From UHGV virus genome UHGV-0063910: a stretch of 35,857 bases of DNA; one strand, given 5' to 3'. The position numbers and the translations under genes are program-made. The DNA comes from a virus. Below the pieces are notes generated by a model that saw only the letters and a list, made by a program, of their open reading frames with translations, ran no database searches and had not been told where the DNA came from. Positions 6,699-25,037 of the stretch are shown here, piece after piece (position 1 is the first letter of the stretch; every line of letters starts with the position of its first letter).

Positions 6699-7489
6699 TT
6701 ACGCCAGTTGTACAGACACGAACTCATCAGGGTCAGCCAGCAGCATCAGCGGTGCTGACTGAATCATGGTGAACTCACGCGCCGGGTCGCCGGTGGTCAC
6801 CCAGTTTTTCGGGTAACGGGCAGAGGCGTTAATGCCTTCGCGCTGTGCGTCCGCATCCTGAATGCAACCATAGGTGCGCAGACCGCGTGCCTGAGTGTTC
6901 CCCAGCACCATCGTGTTGTCCGGCAGGAAGTTCTTTTTGACGCCGTTTTCCACGTACTGTCCGGAATACACGACGATGGCCACATCGCCATACATTCCCT
7001 TATAAGACACCGCTTTGCCCAGGTCTTTTACCGCTGTCTCCAGCTCGGAATGAGAGCCGCGACGGGTATCCAGCTTCTCCTTGACGGCTTTGAAGGAACG
7101 GAACAGCGCCCAGCCTTTCGGATCAAACACGATGATATTCACCACACCGCTGGCGTTCAGCGCGTAGGCTTCGATATCGTCGGTCGGGTCATACGTGGAC
7201 TTGTCACGCTTGCTCCACTCCGTGCCGCCGGACTGCGTGATGTTATTCGCCTCACTGCGGCCCATATCCACCTCAACCGGATCGAAGGCTTCACCGGTCA
7301 TGGTATATTTGCCCTTAAGCACGGCAGAAACTGCCTGCATCTCTTCGACCTGGGCAATCGCCAGATTTTCATCCAGCATATTCTGCCGAATAATACGGCG
7401 ACGACGGTAAGCCGGGTCAGCCAGGTTCTGCGGATCTTCATCCGGCAGGCGACGCAGGGTCATCTGCGGATTCACCTCATGCTTGGGTT
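6699..7489 (-). pseudogene. E: Major capsid protein E, 3' portion (lambda E codons ~82-341), cut off from its 5' end by the island
   Basis: Translation PKHEVNPQMTLRRLPDEDPQNLADPAYRRRR...DPDEFVSVQLA matches the lambda gpE C-terminal ~260 aa. The reading frame is preceded by a TAA where the island begins. The N-terminal 82 codons are at 18606..18849. Confidence 0.9.
7480..7489. repeat. Left copy of 10-bp direct repeat TGCTTGGGTT flanking the island (putative attL core)
   Basis: Identical 10-mer at 18606..18615. Outer flanks on each side are the two halves of the E reading frame (cctca on the left, tgacata on the right). Confidence 0.8.
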
Positions 7490-7608
7490 ACATGAGTCAA
7501 ATATGAAAGGATGTGAATGATTTTTAGTGATAATATGCTTCAGAATTACTTCCAAAACGAACCGTTGCAATACATCATGCAATACACAGGATATGTAAGG
7601 AGTTATTA

Positions 7609-7794
7609 ATGACTAATTCAGTTGATGTTCAAACCCGTAGAGAAGAATTTGAGCAAGGATATCGAGATGGCTTTCGTTCGGTTCAGGGCAATGTTTTACC
7701 CCCAAAAGCTCCAAGAATTGTACTTGAAACGGGTTCAAAACCTTACGATCAAGGCCATGCTTACGGGGTCAGAGATGCTGGAGGCAAGCGGTAG
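7609..7794 (+). CDS. Small hypothetical protein (61 aa), first gene of the island cargo region
   Basis: ATG at 7609 with AAGGAG 8 nt upstream; AT-rich region; directly upstream of the Abi-like gene. Confidence 0.45.
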   Translation: MTNSVDVQTRREEFEQGYRDGFRSVQGNVLPPKAPRIVLETGSKPYDQGHAYGVRDAGGKR

Positions 7795-7838
7795 CTATCA
7801 CTGGTATAGTCCATAGAAAAAGTGTAAGGGGTCCTAAA

Positions 7839-8600
7839 ATGGATAATTTTCTCAATGAGTTTTCGTCGGATCAGGAACGAGCTAGACATTTAGAGAACTT
7901 ATTAATTAAGGTTGCTCGAGGAGGACCTCGAGATAATAGTGAAAATTATATTTCTCTTAGATCGTACTTTATACAAAACTCTGTATTAAAACTGTTGCTT
8001 CCTGCATTCGTAAGAGAAAACAGAAGCCTAAAAAAATTTTGGGGATTCATACAGCAGAAGTTCCCAACATATAAAGAGCGCGAGTACTTCATCTCAACTG
8101 AATTCACACCGTTATTCGATTATTTCGAAGAGAATCATGCTACGCCTTCGGATGTTCACATAACTGACGGATTAAGAAGCTATGATGAGTGTGGCGTGAA
8201 TGAAGCTTGGGCAAAAGCTCTAGACAGAAGAAACAACGATCCTGAAGGGGCTATTACAGCATCTAGAACATTGCTTGAGACGGTTTGTAAACACATTCTT
8301 GATGATTTAAGTATTACTTATGATAGAAATCTAGACATGAGTGAACTTTATAAACTAACATCCAAAGCACTTAATTTGGCTCCAGATCAGCACGGAGAAC
8401 AGATTTTTAAGCAGATACTTAAAGGTTGCTCATCTGTGGTAAATGGCCTTGGCAATTTACGTAATAAATATGGCGATGCTCATGGCATAGGGAAAAAACC
8501 AATAAAACCTGCTGATCGACATGCTCTTTTAGCTGTTAATCTTGCAGGAAGCATGTCAGTTTTCCTCATTCAAACATGGCAAAACTTGTCAAACAAATAA
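7839..8600 (+). CDS. Abortive-infection-like protein with C-terminal HEPN-type motif (candidate anti-phage cargo)
   Basis: 253-aa ORF with AAGGGG RBS; motif LRNKYGDAHG fits the Rx4-6H HEPN signature. AT-rich composition by eye, at the island edge. Confidence 0.5.
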   Translation: MDNFLNEFSSDQERARHLENLLIKVARGGPRDNSENYISLRSYFIQNSVLKLLLPAFVRENRSLKKFWGFIQQKFPTYKEREYFISTEFTPLFDYFEENHATPSDVHITDGLRSYDECGVNEAWAKALDRRNNDPEGAITASRTLLETVCKHILDDLSITYDRNLDMSELYKLTSKALNLAPDQHGEQIFKQILKGCSSVVNGLGNLRNKYGDAHGIGKKPIKPADRHALLAVNLAGSMSVFLIQTWQNLSNK

Positions 8601-9308
8601 TACCTAATTTTTAACCTCAACTGATTAAATTTCGGTCAAACATCCGTTAGTGAAATACAAGTTGCTATGTAAATACACACCTGCAACTTGTATTACCAAC
8701 CAAGTTTAGCTCCCGATATTACTCATTTCCATTATTTTTCCTTGGCTAGCGCTTCGTCGAACATTTTTACGTGTTATCTTCAAGGTAGATGCTCGCAGAA
8801 ATGATAGTACCACCGATTCGGCGTTGACCATAAGCCAGCAGAACAAGATCCCCTTGGCCGGTTGTATTCGTTACACCACCAAATGCATAGAATGCCTTGT
8901 TATCAGTATCTTGCTTACTCGGCTACCCACAAGATTGTGGGGATAGCATTTGAGCAACGTAGCCTATCGTCACAGAAGCCCCTACTACAAACATCATATT
9001 ACTGGACGCTATACGCGCTCCTGACATTCAGATAGACACAGCAACGCAAATCATTTGCAGCAGACCAGAGCTTTTACTTTCCACAATAACTGGCACAAAT
9101 ACGAATTTCCCGACCCTCAGTAGAGAGCACAAGCGCATCTTTTCCAATATTCTGTTTCCTATGAAAAATACAGAATGTCAGCTCGCGAAATTTACTAGTA
9201 TTCAGATACTTTTCTAATCGAACCTCTCAGTTTAATCGTCATCATTACCTTATAGCTCTGCATTTCGAGTTCCTACAGTAGAGTAAGTGTTCAGTAACCC
9301 AAGTTCAG

Positions 9309-9517
9309 GAGAAAGGAAACGATCATGCCATTTTCAGTCCCAAATAATGCTTTCCATTTCCTTTCTTTTCAGGTGGTGTTTTAAATAAAAACATAAAGTT
9401 ACGGCGAAGAAGAACGGAAACGCCTTAAACCGGAAAATTTCCATAAATAGAGAAAAACTGCGCGCCTTCCGCCCCGTAGTCTGCCGGATTGCCGGAAAGG
9501 ACCCGCCAGCCAGAGCG
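9309..9517. other. Island cos-like site, homologous to the prophage cos
   Basis: About 210 bp alignable with 24828..25037. The ggttacggcgaagaagaacggaaacgccttaaaccggaaaatt block is near-identical. The cosN-like segment (about 9463..9474) differs at several positions and the R1-like hairpin has diverged. Confidence 0.75.
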
Positions 9518-9530
9518 GGCCCTAATTTCA

Positions 9531-9875
9531 TCAACCAATCAACTTATTGCGCCCTTTCAGGGCATTACGCCTGGCGCGTTCAATCTTGAGGCATAACGCC
9601 GCATCAGGTTTTTCCGGTGTGGGTACGAGGCAATAGTTTGATGCTCGCGGGATATTGTTAATCCACTCAACAACCTCGCTTAAATACCAAGCCTTACGCC
9701 CTTCCGTAACCTGCACACGCTCAGGGAACTCTCCACGAGCCTCAAGGTTTAGCAGTGTACGGCGACTCAGGGTTGTAAGTTCCATCACCTGATTCATATC
9801 GACAAGACGCTCGCTTAAGCGCATTTTGTCATCGATATCTAATAGCTCTCGTAGCTGACTATCTCTTTCAATCAT
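9531..9875 (-). CDS. AlpA/MerR-type HTH protein next to the cos-like site (regulator or packaging-specificity factor)
   Basis: 114 aa; segment ELTTLSRRTLLNLEARGEFPERVQV...WYLSEVVEWINN fits the AlpA-family HTH pattern. GAGG RBS; last gene of the E-like/D-like operon. Confidence 0.5.
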   Translation of the reverse strand: MIERDSQLRELLDIDDKMRLSERLVDMNQVMELTTLSRRTLLNLEARGEFPERVQVTEGRKAWYLSEVVEWINNIPRASNYCLVPTPEKPDAALCLKIERARRNALKGRNKLIG

Positions 9876-9884
9876 TCTCGTACC

Positions 9885-10226
9885 TCACACACGTGCCAGC
9901 GGCTGAACAGAAATACCTGAGCCAACAAACGCAGCAACTTTTGCTGATAGTTGTGTTACAGACTCAGGCCAGTTCAGAGCATCAACATTTAAGACGCCGG
10001 TTTTATAAACCTGAGCCTGCGTTTTTGTCGCTGTATCGATTTGTACAGCGGAAACATAAACAGCTTTGCCTGCGCTCGTTCCATCCCATACCACCAGTGC
10101 ACCAGTTGCATCTTCTTGCATCAGTGGCGTAAATGCAGGAATTACCCCTTTATTAGCTGAAAATATCCCCAACGTAGTAACCAGTGCTTCAGTGCCAGCC
10201 ATGAGTTCAGTGTAATGAGTAGCCAT
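9885..10226 (-). CDS. Head decoration protein, lambda gpD-like (island-encoded)
   Basis: 113 aa; aligns with lambda D over TPLM...LVVWDGT..GKAV...YKTG....LNWPE.....AFVGSGIS. AAGGGGGAG RBS; immediately downstream of the E-like gene. Confidence 0.75.
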   Translation of the reverse strand: MATHYTELMAGTEALVTTLGIFSANKGVIPAFTPLMQEDATGALVVWDGTSAGKAVYVSAVQIDTATKTQAQVYKTGVLNVDALNWPESVTQLSAKVAAFVGSGISVQPLARV

Positions 10227-10235
10227 TGCTCCCCC

Positions 10236-11276
10236 TTAACCAATGCGAACGGTAACAAAACGATTGATGCGGGCCGGTATTGGCTGTGGTGCAGAGTGCG
10301 TTTGTACGTACTCAATAGCCGGATCTCCAGGCACAATGTAGTTTTTCGGTGCGAGTTCGGCTTTAGTCAGCCCCATTCGGATTAGCTCCGGATCCTGAAT
10401 GCCACCGTATGCAACGATGCCCTGAAGTGATGTATTGCCAAGAACCATCAAATCAGGATCAAGGAAATATTTTTCTGTTCCGTCCTCGTCGGTATAACGT
10501 CCGCTATACACAACAATAGCCACATCGCCTACGTAACCCTTAAAACTGACGGAATCCCCAAGATTTTTCAGGGCCGTTTCAAGAACGGAATTAGATCCCC
10601 GTCGAGTATCAAGGCAATCTTTTACTGCTTTAAAGGCGCGGTATTTTTTCCATACGTTGCGTCCCATTACGATGATATTTGTAGTCCCTTCGCTGATTTC
10701 TGCGTACTCTTCGATGTCATCATTTGGATCAAATGTTGATAAATCTCTACCGCTCCACTCCGTGCCGCCGGACTGCGTGATAATATTTTGTGGTTTTATA
10801 TTCCAGTCCAGTTCATAACGTTCAATGCCATCGCCCTCAATGATATTTTTCCCCGTTGTGATTGCCTGAACAGCAAGCCATTCAATACGTGCGCGAATGG
10901 CCTGCGCTTGTCTTACCATCGCTCGCTTTATTTTGAAATTGCGTGATGAATATGCATTGAATTGTTCCGGTGATACGCCTGGTTGACGAACGGCTATTTT
11001 ATTTGGGTCTATACTACTTTTTGGCTTCATGTAGCCAGGGCGAATTACTTTTGATTCGTAGCCTTCATCGCGTGATACTTTACTACCAACCATAGGGGAA
11101 CAAAATGCAGCCATCGGGATGTCTGGATCGTCAATAATATCAAGCGCAATATCCCGCGTCTCAAATGTAACGACTCGCTTAAAAAACAGGTTTATAAATA
11201 AAGAGTTAATCTGCCATTGAATATCTTCGGCATTAACAGTCTGTATTAACTCCGCTGGCGAATATAAACCACTCAT
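10236..11276 (-). CDS. Major capsid protein, lambda gpE-like, full length (island-encoded second copy)
   Basis: 346 aa. Conserved blocks ITQSGGTEWS, DTRRGS, GDVAIVVYSG, YG.IQD shared with lambda E and the split prophage E. Divergent from the prophage copy (roughly half of positions differ by eye). Confidence 0.85.
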   Translation of the reverse strand: MSGLYSPAELIQTVNAEDIQWQINSLFINLFFKRVVTFETRDIALDIIDDPDIPMAAFCSPMVGSKVSRDEGYESKVIRPGYMKPKSSIDPNKIAVRQPGVSPEQFNAYSSRNFKIKRAMVRQAQAIRARIEWLAVQAITTGKNIIEGDGIERYELDWNIKPQNIITQSGGTEWSGRDLSTFDPNDDIEEYAEISEGTTNIIVMGRNVWKKYRAFKAVKDCLDTRRGSNSVLETALKNLGDSVSFKGYVGDVAIVVYSGRYTDEDGTEKYFLDPDLMVLGNTSLQGIVAYGGIQDPELIRMGLTKAELAPKNYIVPGDPAIEYVQTHSAPQPIPARINRFVTVRIG

Positions 11277-11461
11277 ATAACCTCTTAATACTTAGTAAAA
11301 GTGTCGTATTAATTTTATCATCTGCCTTGATCGGCATCTTTATGCATTGCTATGCAATATTGTGCAAAGTTTCAATCTTCGTTTATTTATCCGGCGTTAC
11401 GTGTCATTCTGTACAGCGTTACAAGTTCAAAGACATAAATTATTCTCTTTGGTGATGAAAG

Positions 11462-11487
11462 GGTCGGAATATTCCGGCCTTTTTTTT
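11462..11487 (+). terminator. Intrinsic terminator on the plus strand (hairpin + T8)
   Basis: ggtcggaatattccggcc palindrome followed by tttttttt. No plus-strand ORF upstream, so it may end an unannotated small or antisense RNA. Confidence 0.5.
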
Positions 11488-11510
11488 GCGTGGTGTGACG
11501 GACTCAACTG

Positions 11511-11532
11511 ATAAAAGCCGGATTTCTCCGGC
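11511..11532 (-). terminator. Intrinsic terminator for the island replication operon (minus strand)
   Basis: On the minus strand gccggagaaatccggc followed by ttttat, immediately after the ssb-like stop. Confidence 0.5.
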
Positions 11533-11540
11533 CTGTGCGT

Positions 11541-11947
11541 TCAGAATGGAATATTGTCACCGTAGAGATCATCCCCTCCCGCTGGTGGTGTGTTGCCCTG
11601 TGTGCCTGTGGTTTTACGTCTGTTCCCGCCAGGTCGCACCGTTCGCGCACTGATTACGCTGTCTGCGATAACCTGCCAGCGCTGCCGCGTTTCACCGTTC
11701 TGTCCAGTCCACTGGCTCACCTGCATGTTACCCGCCACGCTCAGGAGTTCGCCTTTGTGATGCTTTGCCAGCGTGTCGGCTTGTCTGCCAAACGCCAGGA
11801 CAGATAACCACATCGTCGCCTGACCGTCATCCGACTGCAGGGCAGTGATACCGCCATACGCGCCAGCGTCATGGGGATGCCCTTGCTGGTCTGTTTTGTC
11901 TGCGGGTCGTCCACCAACCTCCCGTAAACTGATATTTGCGCCGTCAT
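11541..11947 (-). pseudogene. ssb: ssb-like gene split over two reading frames (frameshift near 11838..11850)
   Basis: The 11947 frame gives an SSB-like N-terminus (ISVYGRLVDDPQTKQ...). A different frame gives the OB-fold C-half (WLSVLAFG...KGELLSV...WTGQNGETR) and an acidic tail ending DNIPF. Confidence 0.55.
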
Positions 11948-12201
11948 GCTGCCTGCTCTCCGGACTTAATATTGATGGTTGTCACTTCCTCCGCTTCAGC
12001 AATCTCCCGTTCGGTCAGAGTGGCAAAGTTTGCAGCCGCCGTTGTCATGAATGCGCTAATCAGTTCGGGATGTGCTTTCGCGTATCCTTCACCGGCGTTG
12101 CGATCTATTGCCTTAATCGCCACCCTTAGCCAGTGTTCAGCCATATCAAGGGCGCGGTAATGTGGCTTTATATGTTTGTTCAGTTTTCCTGATGTGTGCA
12201 T
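11944..12201 (-). CDS. Hypothetical protein (85 aa), between the ori and the ssb-like gene
   Basis: ORF whose stop overlaps the ssb-like start; weak RBS. Confidence 0.4.
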   Translation of the reverse strand: MHTSGKLNKHIKPHYRALDMAEHWLRVAIKAIDRNAGEGYAKAHPELISAFMTTAAANFATLTEREIAEAEEVTTINIKSGEQAA

Positions 12202-12246
12202 TTTTATTTTTACCCCCTCGTTTAAAAAGTTTTGAAATGTGGTGCA

Positions 12247-12475
12247 CCTCCTCTACCTCTCTACCTAATCATCTTTCAGGTCAGTAATGGCGCGGCTTTC
12301 AGATGGGTAGAGGGCTTTCGGGGCCCTCTACCCATCCTCTACCCGCCCCTCACAAATGACCTTAATCATGGTGGAGGAGGTAGAGGGCTTTTATTTGCCT
12401 TCTACCTGACCCTCTACCTGCTTATCATATTGAATAATATATATTTATTTTCTTTAGGTAGAGGAGGTAGAGGGC
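12247..12475. repeat. Iteron array (about 9 copies of GGTAGAGG/CCTCTACC, both orientations) flanking an AT-rich stretch: putative island origin of replication
   Basis: Iterons at about 12251-12265, 12306-12313, 12325-12344, 12379-12386, 12399-12420, 12457-12473; AT-rich core 12421-12456; immediately 3' of the primase-helicase gene. Confidence 0.75.
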
Positions 12476-12487
12476 TTTTGTCTAAAA

Positions 12488-14239
12488 TTATAAAAACGCG
12501 TCGCAATCCTCTGTTGTTGTCACATTGGTTTGCGTAAGTCCTTTAACCCTGCGCGTTATATATTCACATCCGTAAACTTTCGCCGCTGGCTTCATGGCCT
12601 TGCTGAAATCAGCCACGTTTAGCGGCTTGCTTCTGCCTGCGTATGCCATAAACGCCAGATAGACGCGGTAAAGGCTGTTTCTGGTCGTGTACTTCACGGA
12701 ATCGCCACCGCCACCCATCATCAGGCCGCGCGCTTCCTCCAGAAAATTCAGAAACTGGCAAAACTCAATAACCGGATCCGTCTGTTGCTTTATCGCCAGT
12801 GCTTCTTCACCGTCGCGCTGTTCAATCAACAAATGTCGCGCCTTTTCTGGATCAGCAAAGTTTGCCAGCAATCTGCGGATAATCACGGGGATTTCAGCCG
12901 CGACCTTCTCCGGTAAATCCTTGTCCTTTTCTGCCTCGCTAACGATATTGTCGAAGCGGAAAATTACGCGACGACGTGACACACCTCCGGCCCGTTCGGT
13001 GAATATCATCGGGTTATTGTTGGTAGCCAGCACCACCGCCCTGATTACCTCCGTAAAACGCTTTTCATATTTCGGGTTTATTTCCACGGGGTCGCCGCCC
13101 GTGATTTTCTTGATGCCCGTGCCTTCGCCTGTATATTTCGGCTGGTCAGCCAGGACGATAAGACGTCTCCCGACAACCTGAGCACGCCCACCAGCATCAT
13201 CAAGCGAAGTCATTTCAGCGCTTACCGTGTTCTGTTTCCCTGCCAGAAGGCTGGCTATGTGCGTGAATGTACTCTTTCCGCTCCCGCCGTCTCCGGTGGC
13301 CTCAATAAACATCTGCCAGTCGTACCGGTTCGCCATAATCATGTACAGCGCGGCACATATACGCATCATCTTGCGCGGGTCTTTTCCGGCTGCGTGATCA
13401 AGCCATTTATGAAAGTTTGGCGCGTTGTCGCGGATGTTCTCCCCTGGTGCTGGTGGCGTGTACTCAATGCCGTTGTGCGTGGTGATCCAGTTCTCCGGCG
13501 AGTGCGGGGAAAATTCCCCCGTTTTCAGGTCAAGCACACCATTGGCGAACGGTAGCAAATCACCGGACGGCTCCCCCATGGGGTCGGCAATAACTTTTAA
13601 CGCCTCCACGGCGTTATTAATTGCACGCTTGCTGAATGTGGCCCTGTGCTCTGAATAGATCGCCACCATTTCGCGGCTCAGCTCCATTGTGCTGACCGGA
13701 CACCATACCCCGCCGCGCCATACGTGGACGATTTCACTTTCTGCATGAACACACACACCATCAAAGCGATCGGCAAGTAGTTGTGCACGTTCACTGTCTG
13801 CCATCTGTGAAAGTTGCGCCTTTTGCTTCGTCGGAAGATTAAGCACCAGACTTTCCCCACGCTCGCATTCCTCTTTGAGTCGCGGCAACTGGTCGGATAA
13901 ATCCACGGGGCTGGTGTCAGTAATCCCCGCGTATTCGTGTACGGTCTTCACTCCAGCCACAGCCAATAACGTAACAATCTGCGTCATGCTGTGCTCTGTG
14001 ATATGTCCTGCGCGGTAAACACGCACACACTGACGATCTTCATCAATGATCCGGTAATCGGTGATATTTTTCAGTTGCTCATCAGCCAGCACGACAGGCG
14101 GCACATCGTCGGCGGCAATATGTTTACCCGCCCATTCCTGCCACTCTTTCGCATGGCTCCACGCATCACTACCTGCAAAGATGATTACCTCTGTCAGTCT
14201 GTCGCGTGGCTGTTTTTTTAAGTTCGGTGCCAGTTTCAT
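12488..14239 (-). CDS. Primase-helicase (D5/P4-alpha-like, SF3 helicase with Walker A)
   Basis: 583 aa; Walker A motif GDGGSGKST in the C-terminal half; location between regulatory genes and ori typical of satellite replication modules. Confidence 0.8.
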   Translation of the reverse strand: MKLAPNLKKQPRDRLTEVIIFAGSDAWSHAKEWQEWAGKHIAADDVPPVVLADEQLKNITDYRIIDEDRQCVRVYRAGHITEHSMTQIVTLLAVAGVKTVHEYAGITDTSPVDLSDQLPRLKEECERGESLVLNLPTKQKAQLSQMADSERAQLLADRFDGVCVHAESEIVHVWRGGVWCPVSTMELSREMVAIYSEHRATFSKRAINNAVEALKVIADPMGEPSGDLLPFANGVLDLKTGEFSPHSPENWITTHNGIEYTPPAPGENIRDNAPNFHKWLDHAAGKDPRKMMRICAALYMIMANRYDWQMFIEATGDGGSGKSTFTHIASLLAGKQNTVSAEMTSLDDAGGRAQVVGRRLIVLADQPKYTGEGTGIKKITGGDPVEINPKYEKRFTEVIRAVVLATNNNPMIFTERAGGVSRRRVIFRFDNIVSEAEKDKDLPEKVAAEIPVIIRRLLANFADPEKARHLLIEQRDGEEALAIKQQTDPVIEFCQFLNFLEEARGLMMGGGGDSVKYTTRNSLYRVYLAFMAYAGRSKPLNVADFSKAMKPAAKVYGCEYITRRVKGLTQTNVTTTEDCDAFL

Positions 14240-14535
14240 TTTTTGCCCCTGAATGCGTTAATCATGCTTTTCATTTTCTGGATGTTTCCCCGCGCTTTTT
14301 CCCTGCTGATGGGGTTACTGCGGGGTGCGGCATATACCAGGGAAAAATCACGCCGGAACTGATAAACAGGCATCACGCAGTCATAGCTATACCCCTCACG
14401 GCGGTAAGTGATGCGCCGTTCTGCCACGCCTTTAATCGTTACCGTGCCGCCGTATTTATCGCGGTAAATATCGCCGTTCATAAATTCAGGCCGAGCGGGG
14501 CCGCTGGCAATAAAGCCAGAATTTTTCATTTCCAT
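14236..14535 (-). CDS. Hypothetical protein (99 aa), translationally coupled to primase
   Basis: Stop overlaps the primase ATG (ATGA). Confidence 0.5.
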   Translation of the reverse strand: MEMKNSGFIASGPARPEFMNGDIYRDKYGGTVTIKGVAERRITYRREGYSYDCVMPVYQFRRDFSLVYAAPRSNPISREKARGNIQKMKSMINAFRGKK

Positions 14536-14552
14536 ATTATTTATTCCTCGAC

Positions 14553-14774
14553 TTAACTCGACTTATTTGATAGCAGGGCACTATTTATTGCGTCATTGAG
14601 TTTTTCTGCTGCTTCATCAATAAGTGACAACAGGCCATAAGCAATATTTGCATCTTCATTGTCATTTATGCAATCAAGCCACATATTTAATATTGCTTTT
14701 GCTGAATTATTTAAAGTTAATGAACTTTCTGCACATGCTAACAATTTAAAAAAGACTTCCCGTTCTGTATTCAT
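14553..14774 (-). CDS. Hypothetical small protein (73 aa)
   Basis: ORF in the tightly packed minus-strand operon; AT-rich codons. Confidence 0.4.
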   Translation of the reverse strand: MNTEREVFFKLLACAESSLTLNNSAKAILNMWLDCINDNEDANIAYGLLSLIDEAAEKLNDAINSALLSNKSS

Positions 14775-14966
14775 TTAATCCCCCACCAGCTTACTTTCTT
14801 CCTCAATCAAAAAACTAGCGACACTTCCCGAAAGACGCGCCAGTAGGCTCGCCAGTGCGGATATATCAGCATCTGTAATTTTGTTCGGGTATACCTCAAG
14901 AAGGCGGCAAATAATTTCTGTCTGGTGCGCACGTTCAGCGGCTTCGTGTAATGTAATTTCCTGCAT
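14775..14966 (-). CDS. Hypothetical small protein (63 aa)
   Basis: Abuts neighbouring ORFs in the same operon. Confidence 0.4.
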   Translation of the reverse strand: MQEITLHEAAERAHQTEIICRLLEVYPNKITDADISALASLLARLSGSVASFLIEEESKLVGD

Positions 14967-15151
14967 TAATGCACCTCTTTTAATTCATACACTGCTGAAA
15001 TAATGACTTGTGATAAGCCATATTCTGATGATTCGCTTCTCACCGCAGCAATAGCCGTCTGAACATTAACAGCCTTCACGTTCTGAGCGATACCAATTGT
15101 GTGGCCTAGTGGGTTAACCGCACGAGCAAATACACGGAAGGTTTTAAGCAC
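14966..15151 (-). CDS. Hypothetical small protein (61 aa)
   Basis: Abuts neighbouring ORFs in the same operon. Confidence 0.4.
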   Translation of the reverse strand: MLKTFRVFARAVNPLGHTIGIAQNVKAVNVQTAIAAVRSESSEYGLSQVIISAVYELKEVH

Positions 15152-15508
15152 GGCATACCTCCTGACGAATACGGGCGGCGAATATCATCACGCAGCCAGT
15201 TGGGGATTGTTGGCGGGCTTCCTGTTCGCTGGTGGCCTCGATGTGTATTACGCGTGGTTGTGCGGTGCTCAGGGCGATAAAACGCCAGATGAAATTGTTT
15301 TCGCATTTCTGAATAAACAGCGTGTTTTCTTCACGCCCTTTCCAGAAAGCCGCAGTATAGCCCATCTCCTTAACCATCTTGCGGGCATCAACCAGCGTGT
15401 CAGCGGCAACATGTACCGTAGTTGCTCCATCTGCCATGCGGTCGTGGTGTAGTGCCAGAAAGGTGTATATAAATTTAGGGTGAGTTTGGGTATGCTGTGT
15501 TCCAGCCA
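15144..15508 (-). CDS. Hypothetical protein (121 aa), first gene of the island early operon
   Basis: ATG at 15506-15508 with GAGG RBS. The track ORF upstream of this ATG (to 16058) is antisense to the regulator gene and Ser/Arg-rich, so treated as spurious. Confidence 0.5.
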
Positions 15509-15595
15509 TAATCGTTACCTCGTTTAACGGTTTGGTTAGAAGCCCGGTTAGTGTTCGCGCACTGCCGGGTTTCGTCGTTTTTATGAATCGATCAT

Positions 15596-15699
15596 TGTGA
15601 GATACATAGCGACCATAATGTGAGATATACATTATATTGTGGTGATATACATTGCAAGTGTTTTTATATCTCACTTTTGTGTATAGTGATATACACATA
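15596..15699. promoter_or_regulatory. Divergent control region with 5 copies of a GTGA(G/T)ATA(T)ACA(T) operator-like repeat
   Basis: Copies at about 15596-15608, 15619-15632, 15640-15651, 15665-15674 (inverted), 15687-15699, between the minus-strand operon start and the plus-strand regulator. Confidence 0.55.
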
Positions 15700-15717
15700 A
15701 CAAATTGGTGATTAACT

Positions 15718-16020
15718 ATGTCTGTATACAAAAATGCAAAATCGCAAATGACAACGATCAGGGTTCCCCACGATGTTATGGAGGGCATGGAATCCGTAAA
15801 ACTGGACGGCGAAAGCAACGCCGGATTCATAGTAACCGCCATGCGCGGTGAGATCGCCCGCCGCCAGGCAGAAGGAAGCGGAGAAAATCCCCTCGTGTCT
15901 TCACTGGATGCCTTAGCTAAGGTCGAACAAATCGGCATCAAGGCAGCGGAGGAAATCGGGCAACTCGTAGCCGTCGCTCGTGAAGAACTCCAGCGGCGTA
16001 AAGCCAAAGAATCTGAATAA
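15718..16020 (+). CDS. Putative ribbon-helix-helix-like DNA-binding regulator (candidate island repressor)
   Basis: 100 aa; N-terminus QMTTIRVPHDVMEGMESVKLDGESNAGFIVTAMRGEIARRQ fits a strand-helix-helix layout; immediately downstream of the operator repeats. Confidence 0.4.
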   Translation: MSVYKNAKSQMTTIRVPHDVMEGMESVKLDGESNAGFIVTAMRGEIARRQAEGSGENPLVSSLDALAKVEQIGIKAAEEIGQLVAVAREELQRRKAKESE

Positions 16021-16370
16021 TTAGTATCAGCGCCGTGATGTGAGTAACTACGGCGCATTGCTATGTAAATACTGGCAATAAACAGAAAAGGTAGTTCTAC
16101 TCCGAATAATTTTATCTGACACTACTCCTGAACTAACATGCGCTTATCTTACAGGATATAAATATAAATCCATAAAATCACGATTAAATAAAGTCGCTCC
16201 AAACATAAACCACACCCAACGCTTAACAAGATAGCAACAAACAGGTAAATAACTTGCAGAAATATTTATCGCAAGGATTATCATTATTAATGACAAATCA
16301 CTTTACCAAGTCATTCCCCTCTCTTATCATAAAGAGAAAGTAATAAATAAGTTAAGGGAGTTAGAATGCT

Positions 16371-16907
16371 ATGAATCTAAAAAAAATAGCCACAAACACA
16401 AAAAACAAGATAACAGAAACATTTAATAAACTTATATTGGAGGCATCTAAAACCCCCACGCAAGATGAAATTAAAATACTTGAGAGAAGGAGTAAGAAGT
16501 TTAATTACTCCTTTTTCTCATACGCAGTCACAGGAGCTATAATAGTTTTTTGCTCTCAACCATTAATTAAATACGCAAACCCAATACTTATTTTATTGAG
16601 TGGTCTGTTACTGTCTATCATCATTATCATTCTCAGAATGATTTATATTTCACAAGCGAATGCATCATGGACAACCAAAAAACGCTCACATGTACTAGTT
16701 CATTTTCTTTCTGCATGTTTCATAGCATCAACATTGACGTTGCTATATCAGGCTTACGATAATAACATCACACACAAATTGTACTGTAAAAATATACAAC
16801 AACTTATTGAAAAAAGGATAGAAATAGAAAAAAACATCAGCATATTCAGTGGGATGCAATGCACCCCGGTATATGATTACTCTTTATTTGGATTTAATCT
16901 CTTATAA
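16371..16907 (+). CDS. Small membrane protein (about 3 TM helices), AT-rich cargo
   Basis: 178 aa; hydrophobic stretches FFSYAVTGAIIVFCSQPLI, ILILLSGLLLSIIIIILRMIYI, VLVHFLSACFIASTLTLLY; Lys/Asn/Ile-rich; preceded by GGGAG. Confidence 0.5.
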   Translation: MNLKKIATNTKNKITETFNKLILEASKTPTQDEIKILERRSKKFNYSFFSYAVTGAIIVFCSQPLIKYANPILILLSGLLLSIIIIILRMIYISQANASWTTKKRSHVLVHFLSACFIASTLTLLYQAYDNNITHKLYCKNIQQLIEKRIEIEKNISIFSGMQCTPVYDYSLFGFNLL

Positions 16908-16927
16908 AGAATGTTATTACTGATTTG

Positions 16928-16961
16928 AGTACAAATTCTCAAATCAGTAATTCATAATATT
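16928..16961. terminator. Bidirectional terminator hairpin (13-bp stem) between the membrane-protein gene and alpA
   Basis: ttactgatttgag ... ctcaaatcagtaa inverted repeat with an 8-nt loop and T-rich flanks on both sides. Confidence 0.55.
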
Positions 16962-16976
16962 TTATTCTGAGATAAT

Positions 16977-17213
16977 TTAAACTACCCACTCACCTCGAAT
17001 CCATGCCTGCACTTCTGAAAGACGATATGCAACAGCAGTGGAACCAATCTTGATCCGCTTAGGAAATTTTCCTTCCTTCTCCAGCTTCCAGCGTGTGCTG
17101 TTCGCAAGAGTGGTTAGCTCCCGACATTCTTTCTCACGGATCATTCGGTCAATGTTAGGAATGTACTCCAGACCCTTTTTATCAACAATTGCCATTTTTT
17201 TCATGTTAACCAA
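16977..17213 (-). CDS. alpA: AlpA-family HTH regulator / excisionase-like protein
   Basis: 78 aa; ELTTLANSTRWKLEKEGKFPKRIKIGSTAVAYRLSEVQAWI matches the AlpA pattern; directly downstream of int, overlapping it by 8 nt. Confidence 0.7.
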   Translation of the reverse strand: MVNMKKMAIVDKKGLEYIPNIDRMIREKECRELTTLANSTRWKLEKEGKFPKRIKIGSTAVAYRLSEVQAWIRGEWVV

Positions 17214-18441
17214 CCTTTTGTTTGAGGATTGTCACTTTTGAATCAGCACCTGCGATGCTATTGAGATATGTAGTCCAGAGTTCCAGAGCATCCAGTTTTT
17301 TAGCCATAAACTTACTCCGGTTGTAAACACCTGCCACGCCAGGTAGCGCATGGCCTAACAGTTGTTCTACTACATAAAATTCAACACCGAGATCACTTAG
17401 ATGAGTAGATAGCGTTCTTCTAAGGTCGTGTAGTGACCATTGTTTTTCATGGCCCAAACGTTTACCGATTTTCCCCCCAATCTTGCTTACGCTTTCTCTA
17501 ATTCGCAGACTTCCCAGCACATAACCAGTATGTTTTGTCTCTTCGTGAACATCCGTTACCCACTGTCGTAGAATTTCAGGTACTGGTCTGACGATTTCAA
17601 CACCAGTTTTTGAGTGATCTTTTGGTACAGTCCAAACCCAACTTTCGAGATCCCATTCGCTCCATTCTGATAATCGGGCTTCACTCATTCGACATCCAAA
17701 TACTGTACAAAGCACAAACATTTTTCGCGTGTATTCAGACATTAGTTTTAAATCAGGCTCGACAAAAATTGCCTTCCAGAGCTGGCCGAGTTCGGCTTCA
17801 TCCAGAACCCGATCCCGCTTACCTGCAATCTGCCCCACATCACTCATGCGCAAATCCTTTAAAGCATCACACGTCGCGTACTGGCGTACCCGACAAAAAC
17901 GAAGAGCTAATTTAGTGTCAGAAAAAACATACGCCGCCATAACTGGTGCATTACGTTTAATTCGGTCAAAACAGTCCAGCCATTCATATAGGTGAGTGTC
18001 ATTTACGGGCAAATGACCGATATAGGGAAAGATATGCTTTCGAAATCTGCCAAGCGTTACAGCATGAGTTTTACGACGCACCTTACAGTAATTTTCATAC
18101 CAGTAATTTAGTGCATCCTCCACTGTGACCGGCTTTAAGCGTTCTTCAGCCTGAATCTTAATCTGGATACGCGGATCACGTTTGTCAGCCAACCAACCAC
18201 GGCACTCGTCGCGCTTTTCCCTTGCCTGTTTGAGTGACATATCAGGATATTTACCCAACGTTAGCCAGACCGGAGCAGCCCGGCCACCTGCTAACCTGTA
18301 GAAGAAAACAAAGCTTACAGCCCCTTTAGTACTCACACGAATAGAAAGCCCCTTTCCATCAGCAATGGTGATCTGCTTTTCTCTGGGTTTCCCCAGATAT
18401 CCTTTAAGCGCTTTGTCGCTCAGTTTGTTCTCGCCAGCCAT
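17206..18441 (-). CDS. int: Tyrosine integrase (P4-type)
   Basis: C-terminal catalytic region with HDLRRT...LGH...Y residues; sits next to the right repeat. Start placed at ATG 18439-18441 (MAGENKLSDK...); the track ORF extends to 18492. Confidence 0.85.
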   Translation of the reverse strand: MAGENKLSDKALKGYLGKPREKQITIADGKGLSIRVSTKGAVSFVFFYRLAGGRAAPVWLTLGKYPDMSLKQAREKRDECRGWLADKRDPRIQIKIQAEERLKPVTVEDALNYWYENYCKVRRKTHAVTLGRFRKHIFPYIGHLPVNDTHLYEWLDCFDRIKRNAPVMAAYVFSDTKLALRFCRVRQYATCDALKDLRMSDVGQIAGKRDRVLDEAELGQLWKAIFVEPDLKLMSEYTRKMFVLCTVFGCRMSEARLSEWSEWDLESWVWTVPKDHSKTGVEIVRPVPEILRQWVTDVHEETKHTGYVLGSLRIRESVSKIGGKIGKRLGHEKQWSLHDLRRTLSTHLSDLGVEFYVVEQLLGHALPGVAGVYNRSKFMAKKLDALELWTTYLNSIAGADSKVTILKQKVG

Positions 18442-18605
18442 TTTTAGCCCCAAAAAGCAATACAAGCTGCAATACAGAGATGATTGCAACACACAGATAA
18501 CGAGGAAAATTCAGTGAAAGCACCAGATAAACTTATTCTTTATTATCAAAAGATTAAGTGTAAAAACCAGCAACTACACGAAAGCCTCAGAAAGCCATGC
18601 TAAGT

Positions 18606-18615
18606 GCTTGGGTTT
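18606..18615. repeat. Right copy of 10-bp direct repeat TGCTTGGGTT (putative attR core)
   Basis: Identical to 7480..7489; lies inside the codons KPKH of the E 5' fragment. Confidence 0.8.
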
Positions 18616-18849
18616 GACATAACCCGGCGTAAATTCAGAGGTGGAGCCGCCACGGGATCGGATAACCTCACCGGAAACAATCGGCGAAACGTACAGCGCC
18701 ATGTTTACCAGTCCCGGAATTTGTGAGAGATAGACTTTTTCCGTGGTGAAAGGATAGGTTTCACGGAAAAACAGGCGCAGAAACAGCGGATCGAACTTAA
18801 AGTGATGCTGGGTCGATGCCAGTAATTCTGCAGTTGTATATACAGACAT
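18606..18849 (-). pseudogene. E: Major capsid protein E, 5' portion (codons 1-~82), reads into island DNA
   Basis: MSVYTTAELLASTQHHFKFDPLFLRLFFRETYPFTTEKVYLSQIPGLVNMALYVSPIVSGEVIRSRGGSTSEFTPGYVKPKH matches the lambda gpE N-terminus, then continues as LAWLSEAFV-stop in island sequence (track ORF ends at 18574). Confidence 0.9.
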
Positions 18850-18904
18850 AAATTATTTCCATAAAAAAAGCCGCACAGGCGGCCTTTGTTGATGAAGGGG
18901 AAGA

Positions 18905-19237
18905 TTAAACGATGCTGATTGCCGTTCCGGCAAACGCGGTCCGTTTTTTCGTCTCGTCGCTGGCAGCCTCCGGCCAGAGCACATCCTCATAACGGAACGA
19001 GCCGGACTTGTAGAACGTCAGTGTGGTGCTGGTCTGGTCAGCAGCAACCGCAAGAATGCCAACGGCTGCACCGTCGGTGGTGCCATCCCACACAACCAGC
19101 TTACGGATAGTGCCATCCAGCATCAGTGGGGTCATTGCAGGCGTTTTCGCACTCAATCCGCCAGGCGCAATTGCTGTATGAGCTGGATCACTGTTACCCA
19201 GCGGCTGGTAATGGTTAAACTCTTCTTTTGTCGCCAT
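18905..19237 (-). CDS. D: Head decoration protein D
   Basis: 110-aa ORF ...[30 protein letters not shown]... matches lambda gpD. Confidence 0.9.
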
Positions 19238-24827: not shown

Positions 24828-25037
24828 AGAGAAAGGAAACGACAGAGGCTAAAAAGCCCGTTTTCAGCACCTGTCGTTTCCTTTCTTTTCAGGGGGTGTT
24901 TTAAATAAAAACATTAGGTTACGGCGAAGAAGAACGGAAACGCCTTAAACCGGAAAATTTTCATAAATAGCGAAAACCCGCGAGGTCGCCGCCCCGTAAC
25001 GGTCTGGATCACCGGAAAGGACCCGCCAACGACTTTC
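24828..25037. other. Prophage cos site (cosB R elements, cosN with 12-nt cohesive end AGGTCGCCGCCC at 24983..24994, cosQ side)
   Basis: Reverse complement contains GGGCGGCGACCTCGCGGGTTTTCGCTATTTATGAAAATTTTCCGGTTTAAGGCGTTTCCGTTCTTCTTCGCCGTAAC, matching the lambda left end/cos as recalled. Confidence 0.9.

Follow-up and report, generated by a model that had tools for sequence, protein, structure and literature searches.

The satellite island and its prophage

The window, by which we mean the whole 35,857-bp stretch of DNA analysed here, contains a lambdoid prophage with a satellite of approximately 11.1 kb lying on the minus strand at 7480–18614. A 10-bp core, TGCTTGGGTT, is duplicated at the island bounds (7480–7489 and 18605–18614), and the lambda-E-like capsid gene of the prophage is split at KPKH into fragments at 6699–7475 and 18574–18849. 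Tail genes are found on one side of the split gene and the protease, portal, and terminase genes on the other, and the island has the same orientation as these prophage late genes. The minus strand gene order is int (17206–18492), alpA (16977–17213), an Icd-like gene (15144–16058), a DUF4222 gene (14236–14535), the initiator-helicase gene (12488–14239), a spacer, an 85-aa ORF (orf85, 11944–12201), ssb (11541–11947, frameshifted), a lambda-E-type capsid gene (10236–11276), and a decoration gene (9885–10226). After these come a second AlpA-family gene on the same strand (9531–9875) and a cos-like segment (9357–9510). An Abi_C gene at the distal end of the island (7839–8600) is on the plus strand, opposite to the other island genes, and is probable defence cargo.

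The unidirectional int, alpA, and pri genes, a size within the range of 10–20 kb, and the absence of tail and lysis genes mark the island as a Gram-negative PICI. Its insertion within a prophage late gene, in the same orientation, marks it as a helper-embedded PICI. Until excision of the island, the helper is unable to produce capsid protein. This capsid-gene-embedded arrangement is found in many E. coli genomes. The helper-embedded configuration has been published for 11capE, and embedded PICIs have been described as having their own primase and ori (PMC10111431).

The island has additional features of its own. Of its two AlpA-family genes, one is beside int and the other is past the decoration gene. 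The ssb frameshift is near 11831–11837, where residues 1–39 are read in one frame and residues 39–136 in another; either the gene is a pseudogene or the sequence is in error here. The cos-like segment is approximately 95% identical to the cos region of the prophage (24877–25028), although its cosN diverges: at 24983–24994 the prophage has an exact copy of the lambda cosN, GGGCGGCGACCT, and the island counterpart is CGCCTTCCGCCC when read on the plus strand. Antisense to the Icd-like region, at 15504–15576 on the plus strand, there is a weak match to the SymR antitoxin in Rfam (35 bits versus a gathering score of 61).

The repeat array and the initiator

The spacer between the initiator-helicase gene and orf85 contains an array of short repeats. 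The repeat GGTAGAGG, or its complement CCTCTACC, is present in eight exact copies in the window, all of them inside 12250–12473. The expectation for the whole window is 0.46 copies and, in 100 dinucleotide-preserving shuffles, the maximum was three and none attained eight. Three one-mismatch variants within the cluster, GGTAGAGA at 12258 on the minus strand, GGTGGAGG at 12370 on the plus strand, and GGTAGAAG at 12399 on the minus strand, bring the total to 11 sites. The sequence-only reading had counted at least nine copies, a figure that holds when near-copies are included and is one too many for exact copies. Outside the cluster there are 15 one-mismatch matches in the window, which is the chance level, and no second cluster of this type was found in the island or the rest of the window with zero or one mismatch allowed.

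The repeats are in both orientations, as had been noted, with five on the plus strand (12306, 12370, 12379, 12457, and 12466) and six on the minus strand (12250, 12258, 12325, 12336, 12399, and 12411). Adjacent iterons on the same strand are spaced by 8, 11, 9, 12, and 9 bp, approximately one helical turn. Position 12473 is the end of the final iteron, and the initiator, a minus strand gene, has its stop codon at 12488–12490. The array is thus approximately 12 nt 3' of the gene and at lower coordinates, and its earlier description as directly 3' of the gene is correct. A literature text search for the iteron sequences gave no relevant match in published text; published iterons are shown only in a figure.

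An AT-rich tract of 38 bp (12419–12456; 13% GC) is bracketed by opposed iteron pairs, at 12399 and 12411 on the minus strand and at 12457 and 12466 on the plus strand. It is the only strongly AT-rich tract with opposed flanking sites. The description of the iterons as surrounding a 36-bp AT-rich stretch is borne out in that sites flank the tract on both sides; its length is 38 bp, however, and it is off-centre, with two iterons on the gene side and nine on the far side. Two other elements are present in the spacer. One is a 21-bp non-iteron box at 12281–12301, CAGTAATGGCGCGGCTTTCAG. The other, separate from the iteron array, is the leader and RBS of orf85 (12202–12236), which reads GAGGGGGTAAAAATAAAAATG on the minus strand and is invariant in the spacer alignments. 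Motif scans of the origin region for the DnaA-box consensus (including any box with no mismatch), the IHF consensus, and GATC found none of these. A scan of 11800–12800 detected neither a sigma-70-like promoter nor an intrinsic terminator, and no Rfam family attained threshold in a scan of 7000–19000 at E<=1. Two sub-threshold Rfam matches in the spacer resemble miRNA precursors because of the inverted repeats. The minus strand transcript of 12202–12495 folds far beyond its shuffles (z = -8.1), as does the DNA hairpin of 12395–12480 (z = -5.5), and both scores arise because one 8-mer is repeated in both orientations.

The protein encoded 5' of the array, annotated as a 'DNA primase family protein', is 583 aa and has matches in Pfam, NCBIfam, P4 alpha, and the PDB. 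It is comprised of an N-terminal domain (aa 1–136), a D5_N collar, an SF3 helicase with the Walker A motif GDGGSGKS, and a C-terminal origin-binding domain. The Pfam matches are D5_N, DUF5906 (the SF3 helicase), and, sub-threshold, the Pox_D5 C-terminal family; the NCBIfam match is TIGR01613, "primase, P4 family, C-terminal". By BLASTP the initiator is 41% identical to P4 alpha over 443 aa (aa 137–578 versus 321–762 of alpha), an alignment that spans the helicase and the origin-binding domain and leaves out the primase part of alpha. Searching PDB sequences with phmmer matched the helicase core to SaPI5 PriRep (7OLA, E 1e-13) and aa 487–578 to the P4 origin-binding domain (1KA8, E 2.7e-7). An identical initiator (100%) is present on an IMG/VR contig (L047). 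Among complete E. coli genomes, about 950 have matches, at as many as 8 places in one genome.

The winged-helix origin-binding domain comprises aa 487–583 (12491–12781, minus strand), on the basis of the 1KA8 match and an AF2 model. The model, with a pLDDT of 68, was built on a shallow alignment, the protein search having yielded only close E. coli fragments; it has a helix at 542–556 and a hairpin at 561–572. Its top Foldseek match is again 1KA8, albeit weak (E 0.35). Residues A546 and S549 are tentatively placed by the model on the helix preceding the beta-hairpin wing, which would be the expected recognition helix.

Is the protein also a primase, as its annotation and the sequence-only reading have it? 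The Walker A motif and the SF3 helicase are present as described. Within aa 1–136, however, neither Pfam nor NCBIfam has a match, and nothing aligns with aa 1–320 of P4 alpha. Foldseek matches of the initiator in the PDB are limited to the D5/PriRep collar-helicase part, and the N-terminal domain has no primase match, only weak matches to response-regulator-like proteins and DnaG (probability <=0.28). With no detectable primase domain, "primase" is a family label only. The N-terminal domain itself (13832–14239) is a confident small alpha/beta fold (pLDDT 75–92) for which no known family was matched. It has at least two divergent alleles and, in E. coli, also occurs in fusion with RepA/AAA_25-type helicases, and it may serve as an exchangeable adaptor.

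Conservation, iteron classes, and the mosaic block

The 286-bp spacer aligns with its EcCICFT073 counterpart, likewise 3' of the primase gene, in which there are 11 sites with equal positions and orientations. The BLAST match to CFT073 spans the left 117 bp of the spacer. These 11 sites are co-positioned and co-oriented in 12 E. coli PICI loci, including EcCICFT073. Among 50 unique homologous spacers there is little or no variation in the GGTAGA core, the orf85 RBS, the box at 12281–12301, and parts of the AT-tract; the sequence between the sites varies.

The iterons of this family are of two classes, GGTAGANG and GGTAGAYA, told apart by the base at position 8 (G or A). The GGTAGA(N)G class is found in the window, AVS0542, O157:H7 FRIK2455, TUM9803, and RM10466. 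The GGTAGA(Y)A class is found in CFT073, O55:H7, ATCC 25922, and the usual capsid-embedded islands. Each class has its own motif in the origin-binding domain: ..V-A-[DE]-F-S-K.. is paired with the G class and ..V-N-[DE]-F-G-K.. with the A class. The iteron class agrees with the 546/549 motif in 52 of 53 unique loci on IMG/VR viral contigs and in all 12 genome loci, a covariation that rests on few independent lineages and involves codons only some 130 bp from the ori. In some G-class domains, 546, (547), and 549 are the sole differences from that of CFT073. The single exception (L080, IMGVR_UViG_3300029303_000153) has an A-class origin and an initiator with the A/S motif. Its A/S patch is 50 bp or less, within the last ~150 nt of the initiator gene, and could be either real gene conversion or a chimera of metagenome assembly. 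Judging by these sequence comparisons, cognate specificity appears to be determined by base 8 of the iteron together with residues 546 and 549.

The ori and the last ~85 codons of the initiator lie within a block (12168–12746), delimited by sliding identity, whose identity with the chromosomal PICI of E. coli AVS0542 is approximately 99–100%. The flanks on either side are 97–100% identical to typical capsid-gene-embedded PICIs, which bear the other iteron class. The block thus matches one kind of island and its flanks another, which indicates that the ori and the binding domain were exchanged together; the ori and the coding region of the origin-binding domain look like a single recombined cassette in these alignments. 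Taking this further, we tentatively propose that the E. coli PICIs of this family comprise at least two incompatibility-like replicon classes, in which A546/S549 or N546/G549 would read base 8. The ori-domain cassette of approximately 0.6 kb would be exchanged between chromosomal and prophage-embedded satellites, and a class unusual for capsid-embedded islands would have been acquired here, possibly escaping cross-talk with co-resident elements. This broader proposal is possible rather than probable. A two-residue, one-base switch, together with cassette exchange, would offer a testable handle on initiator-origin recognition and on the compatibility of co-resident satellites.

Probable origin function and comparison with known systems

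What, then, is the function of the array? On the strength of sequence comparison, we consider it highly probable that the cluster at 12250–12473 serves a Gram-negative PICI of the EcCICFT073 family, here embedded in a lambda-like prophage's capsid gene, as its vegetative replication origin. This reading is supported because the module is homologous to that of EcCICFT073, which has been tested experimentally. The pri-ori of EcCICFT073 maintains a ts plasmid at the restrictive temperature; deletion of pri abolished this maintenance and deletion of ori significantly reduced it (PMC6092414). PICI origins have been described as sets of iterons on either side of an AT-rich region directly 3' of pri/rep (PMC6092414). 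The layout of a satellite ori recognised in the sequence-only reading agrees with this published organisation, and the architecture of the island's spacer is homologous to that of EcCICFT073 site for site.

For the window element we infer binding, melting, helicase loading, and autonomy. After induction, the 583-aa SF3 helicase-initiator would bind the 8-bp iterons via its C-terminal winged helix. The inverted iteron pairs that flank the 38-bp AT-rich tract would place helicase assemblies on either side of it, and the tract, the presumed melting site by analogy, would then melt. The helicase would load itself and unwind 3'->5'. The other seven sites probably contribute cooperative binding, and priming is probably from another protein since no primase domain is detectable in the initiator.

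Some points weigh against an origin at this position. By analogy, the positional equivalent of the array in P4, crr, would make it an enhancer required in cis rather than the site of initiation. Additionally, the tract is off-centre, the island ssb is frameshifted, and the embedded island could replicate passively from the prophage origin; embedded islands can also be replicated with their helper in this way (PMC10111431). The first of these points can be stated as an alternative: the cluster is a cis-acting enhancer like the P4 crr, bound by the initiator, and initiation takes place elsewhere in the island or at the origin of the helper prophage. The initiator is a homologue of alpha, and crr has an equal relative position, iterons in both orientations, and 9-bp tandem pairs, while the true ori of P4 is a separate cluster. 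No second GGTAGAGG-type cluster is present in the island or the window to serve as such an ori, however, and the sole strongly AT-rich tract with opposed sites is within the spacer. In EcCICFT073 the pri gene and the homologous spacer sufficed for plasmid maintenance (PMC6092414). We regard this alternative as unlikely. The repeats might instead be mainly operators, for transcription of the orf85-ssb-capsid module or for autoregulation of the initiator. The cluster is between co-oriented gene blocks and abuts the orf85 leader and RBS, and the island encodes two AlpA-like DNA-binding proteins. Plasmid iterons commonly double as autoregulatory sites, which also speaks for operators. Against this, neither a sigma-70-like promoter nor an intrinsic terminator was found in 11800–12800, the iteron class follows the DNA-binding domain of the initiator and not another regulator, and the functional data for EcCICFT073 indicate replication (PMC6092414). 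That the repeats are operators and not an origin is therefore quite improbable, although they may have a dual role as origin and operator.

The strong folding of the minus strand transcript of the spacer and of the DNA hairpin (the z-scores of -8.1 and -5.5 given above) would be accounted for if the inverted repeats encoded a structured RNA, a hairpin terminator, or an attenuator. Such folding follows from the recurrence of one 8-mer in both orientations, however, and there is neither an Rfam family above threshold nor a terminator-like T-run. Moreover, in several alleles position 7 of the iteron is not complementary between the opposed arms (211-TA/259+CA, 210-GG/256+AG, and 209-GG/255+TG), which argues against selection for pairing and leaves a role as RNA highly improbable. 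We give almost no credence to the idea that the helper terminase recognises the cluster as a cos or pac packaging site. A satellite does have to carry a signal for packaging, and TerS binding sites can consist of repeats. The island has, however, a separate cos-like segment at 9357–9510 that is approximately 95% identical to the prophage cos region, and the prophage cos around 24983–24994 is without GGTAGAGG sites.

Replication from the array, as we favour, would mean that this prophage-embedded satellite bears an intact, self-specified replicon, as its sequence suggests. This is relevant to the amplification and spread of capsid, abortive-infection, and virulence-linked cargo. A close relative has already been tested, so this adds annotation rather than new biology.

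The array resembles several known origins. It shares with those of the iteron plasmids (of the pSC101, F, R6K, and RK2 type) the repeated initiator sites beside an AT-rich tract and the winged-helix initiator. Plasmid iterons are direct repeats of 17–22 bp, usually accompanied by DnaA boxes, and the plasmid Rep is not a helicase. Unlike these origins, that of the window has 8-bp sites in both orientations, no DnaA or IHF consensus, and an SF3-helicase initiator. The SaPI origins likewise are immediately downstream of rep, have 6–12 short iterons, and are served by a self-loading helicase-initiator with a C-terminal winged helix; the helicase core of the window initiator matches SaPI5 PriRep. 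The SaPI Reps bind their iterons via this winged helix and need no ATP to melt the AT-rich centre (PMC9371898). SaPI iterons are 5–6 bp with the AT-rich tract roughly central, whereas those of the window are 8 bp with the tract off-centre, and there is no sequence similarity between the two oris.

In P4, alpha is comprised of a DnaG-type primase, an SF3 helicase, and a winged-helix domain that binds DNA (PMC2777425). The window initiator is like alpha in having the homologous SF3 helicase and C-terminal winged-helix origin-binding domain; the DnaG-type N-terminal primase of alpha was not found in its aa 1–136. The iterons of both are 8 bp, in both orientations, with a cluster directly 3' of the initiator gene and 9-bp tandem pairs. 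In the P4 record crr has 10 iterons and is 46 nt 3' of alpha, and the true ori, with six iterons (GGTGAACA), is approximately 2 kb away on the other side of alpha. P4 requires these two separated clusters, ori and crr, both with type-1 iterons GGTGAACA, whereas the window island has one, with GGTAGAGG. This cluster is the positional equivalent of crr, yet it is the sole cluster in the island. Four of eight bases are common to the window and P4 iterons, and the CFT073-class iteron, GGTAGACA, differs from GGTGAACA at only two of eight positions. Distant homologues of the initiator (42–51% identity, 31 loci) provide further comparisons. Among loci L005, L006, and L010/L013/L035, the sequence ATGAACA is present 11 times 3' of the initiator gene in Morganella, the exact P4 iteron GGTGAACA five times 3' of the gene in Pectobacterium, and CTGTTCAC four times 3' of the gene in Serratia. 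By exact k-mer counting, most Pantoea and Erwinia loci have no repeat cluster 3' of the gene. At least four copies of an exact 7–8-mer are present 3' of the gene in approximately 8 of the 31 loci, and so the layout is not demonstrably universal in the wider family. The repeat clusters of the Morganella, Pectobacterium, and Serratia loci suggest that P4-type and PICI-type origins form a continuum.

With the embedded PICIs of the 11capE type the window island shares int, alpA, primase, ori, capsid, and decoration genes. The capsid-embedded relatives examined (L001, L044, and the NEFG group) have A-class iterons and the N/G motif, whereas the window has the G-class block, which is otherwise seen, as ori and domain together, in chromosomal PICIs such as those of AVS0542 and O157:H7 FRIK2455. 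EcCICFT073 has the same gene order (DUF4222, primase, spacer, 85-aa ORF, ssb, capsid, and decoration) and an initiator that is 83% identical. Its spacer is similar in length (~286–288 bp across the two) and has 11 matching sites, an AT-rich tract, the conserved box, and the RBS. The two elements differ in their iteron allele, GGTAGA(N)G in the window versus GGTAGA(Y)A in CFT073, in residues 546/549, A/S versus N/G, and in the allele of the N-terminal 140 aa of the initiator. They also differ in location, the window island being in a prophage capsid gene and EcCICFT073 at a chromosomal site. This kind of origin and the embedded configuration have both been published already, and the window element is a recombinant member of the group.
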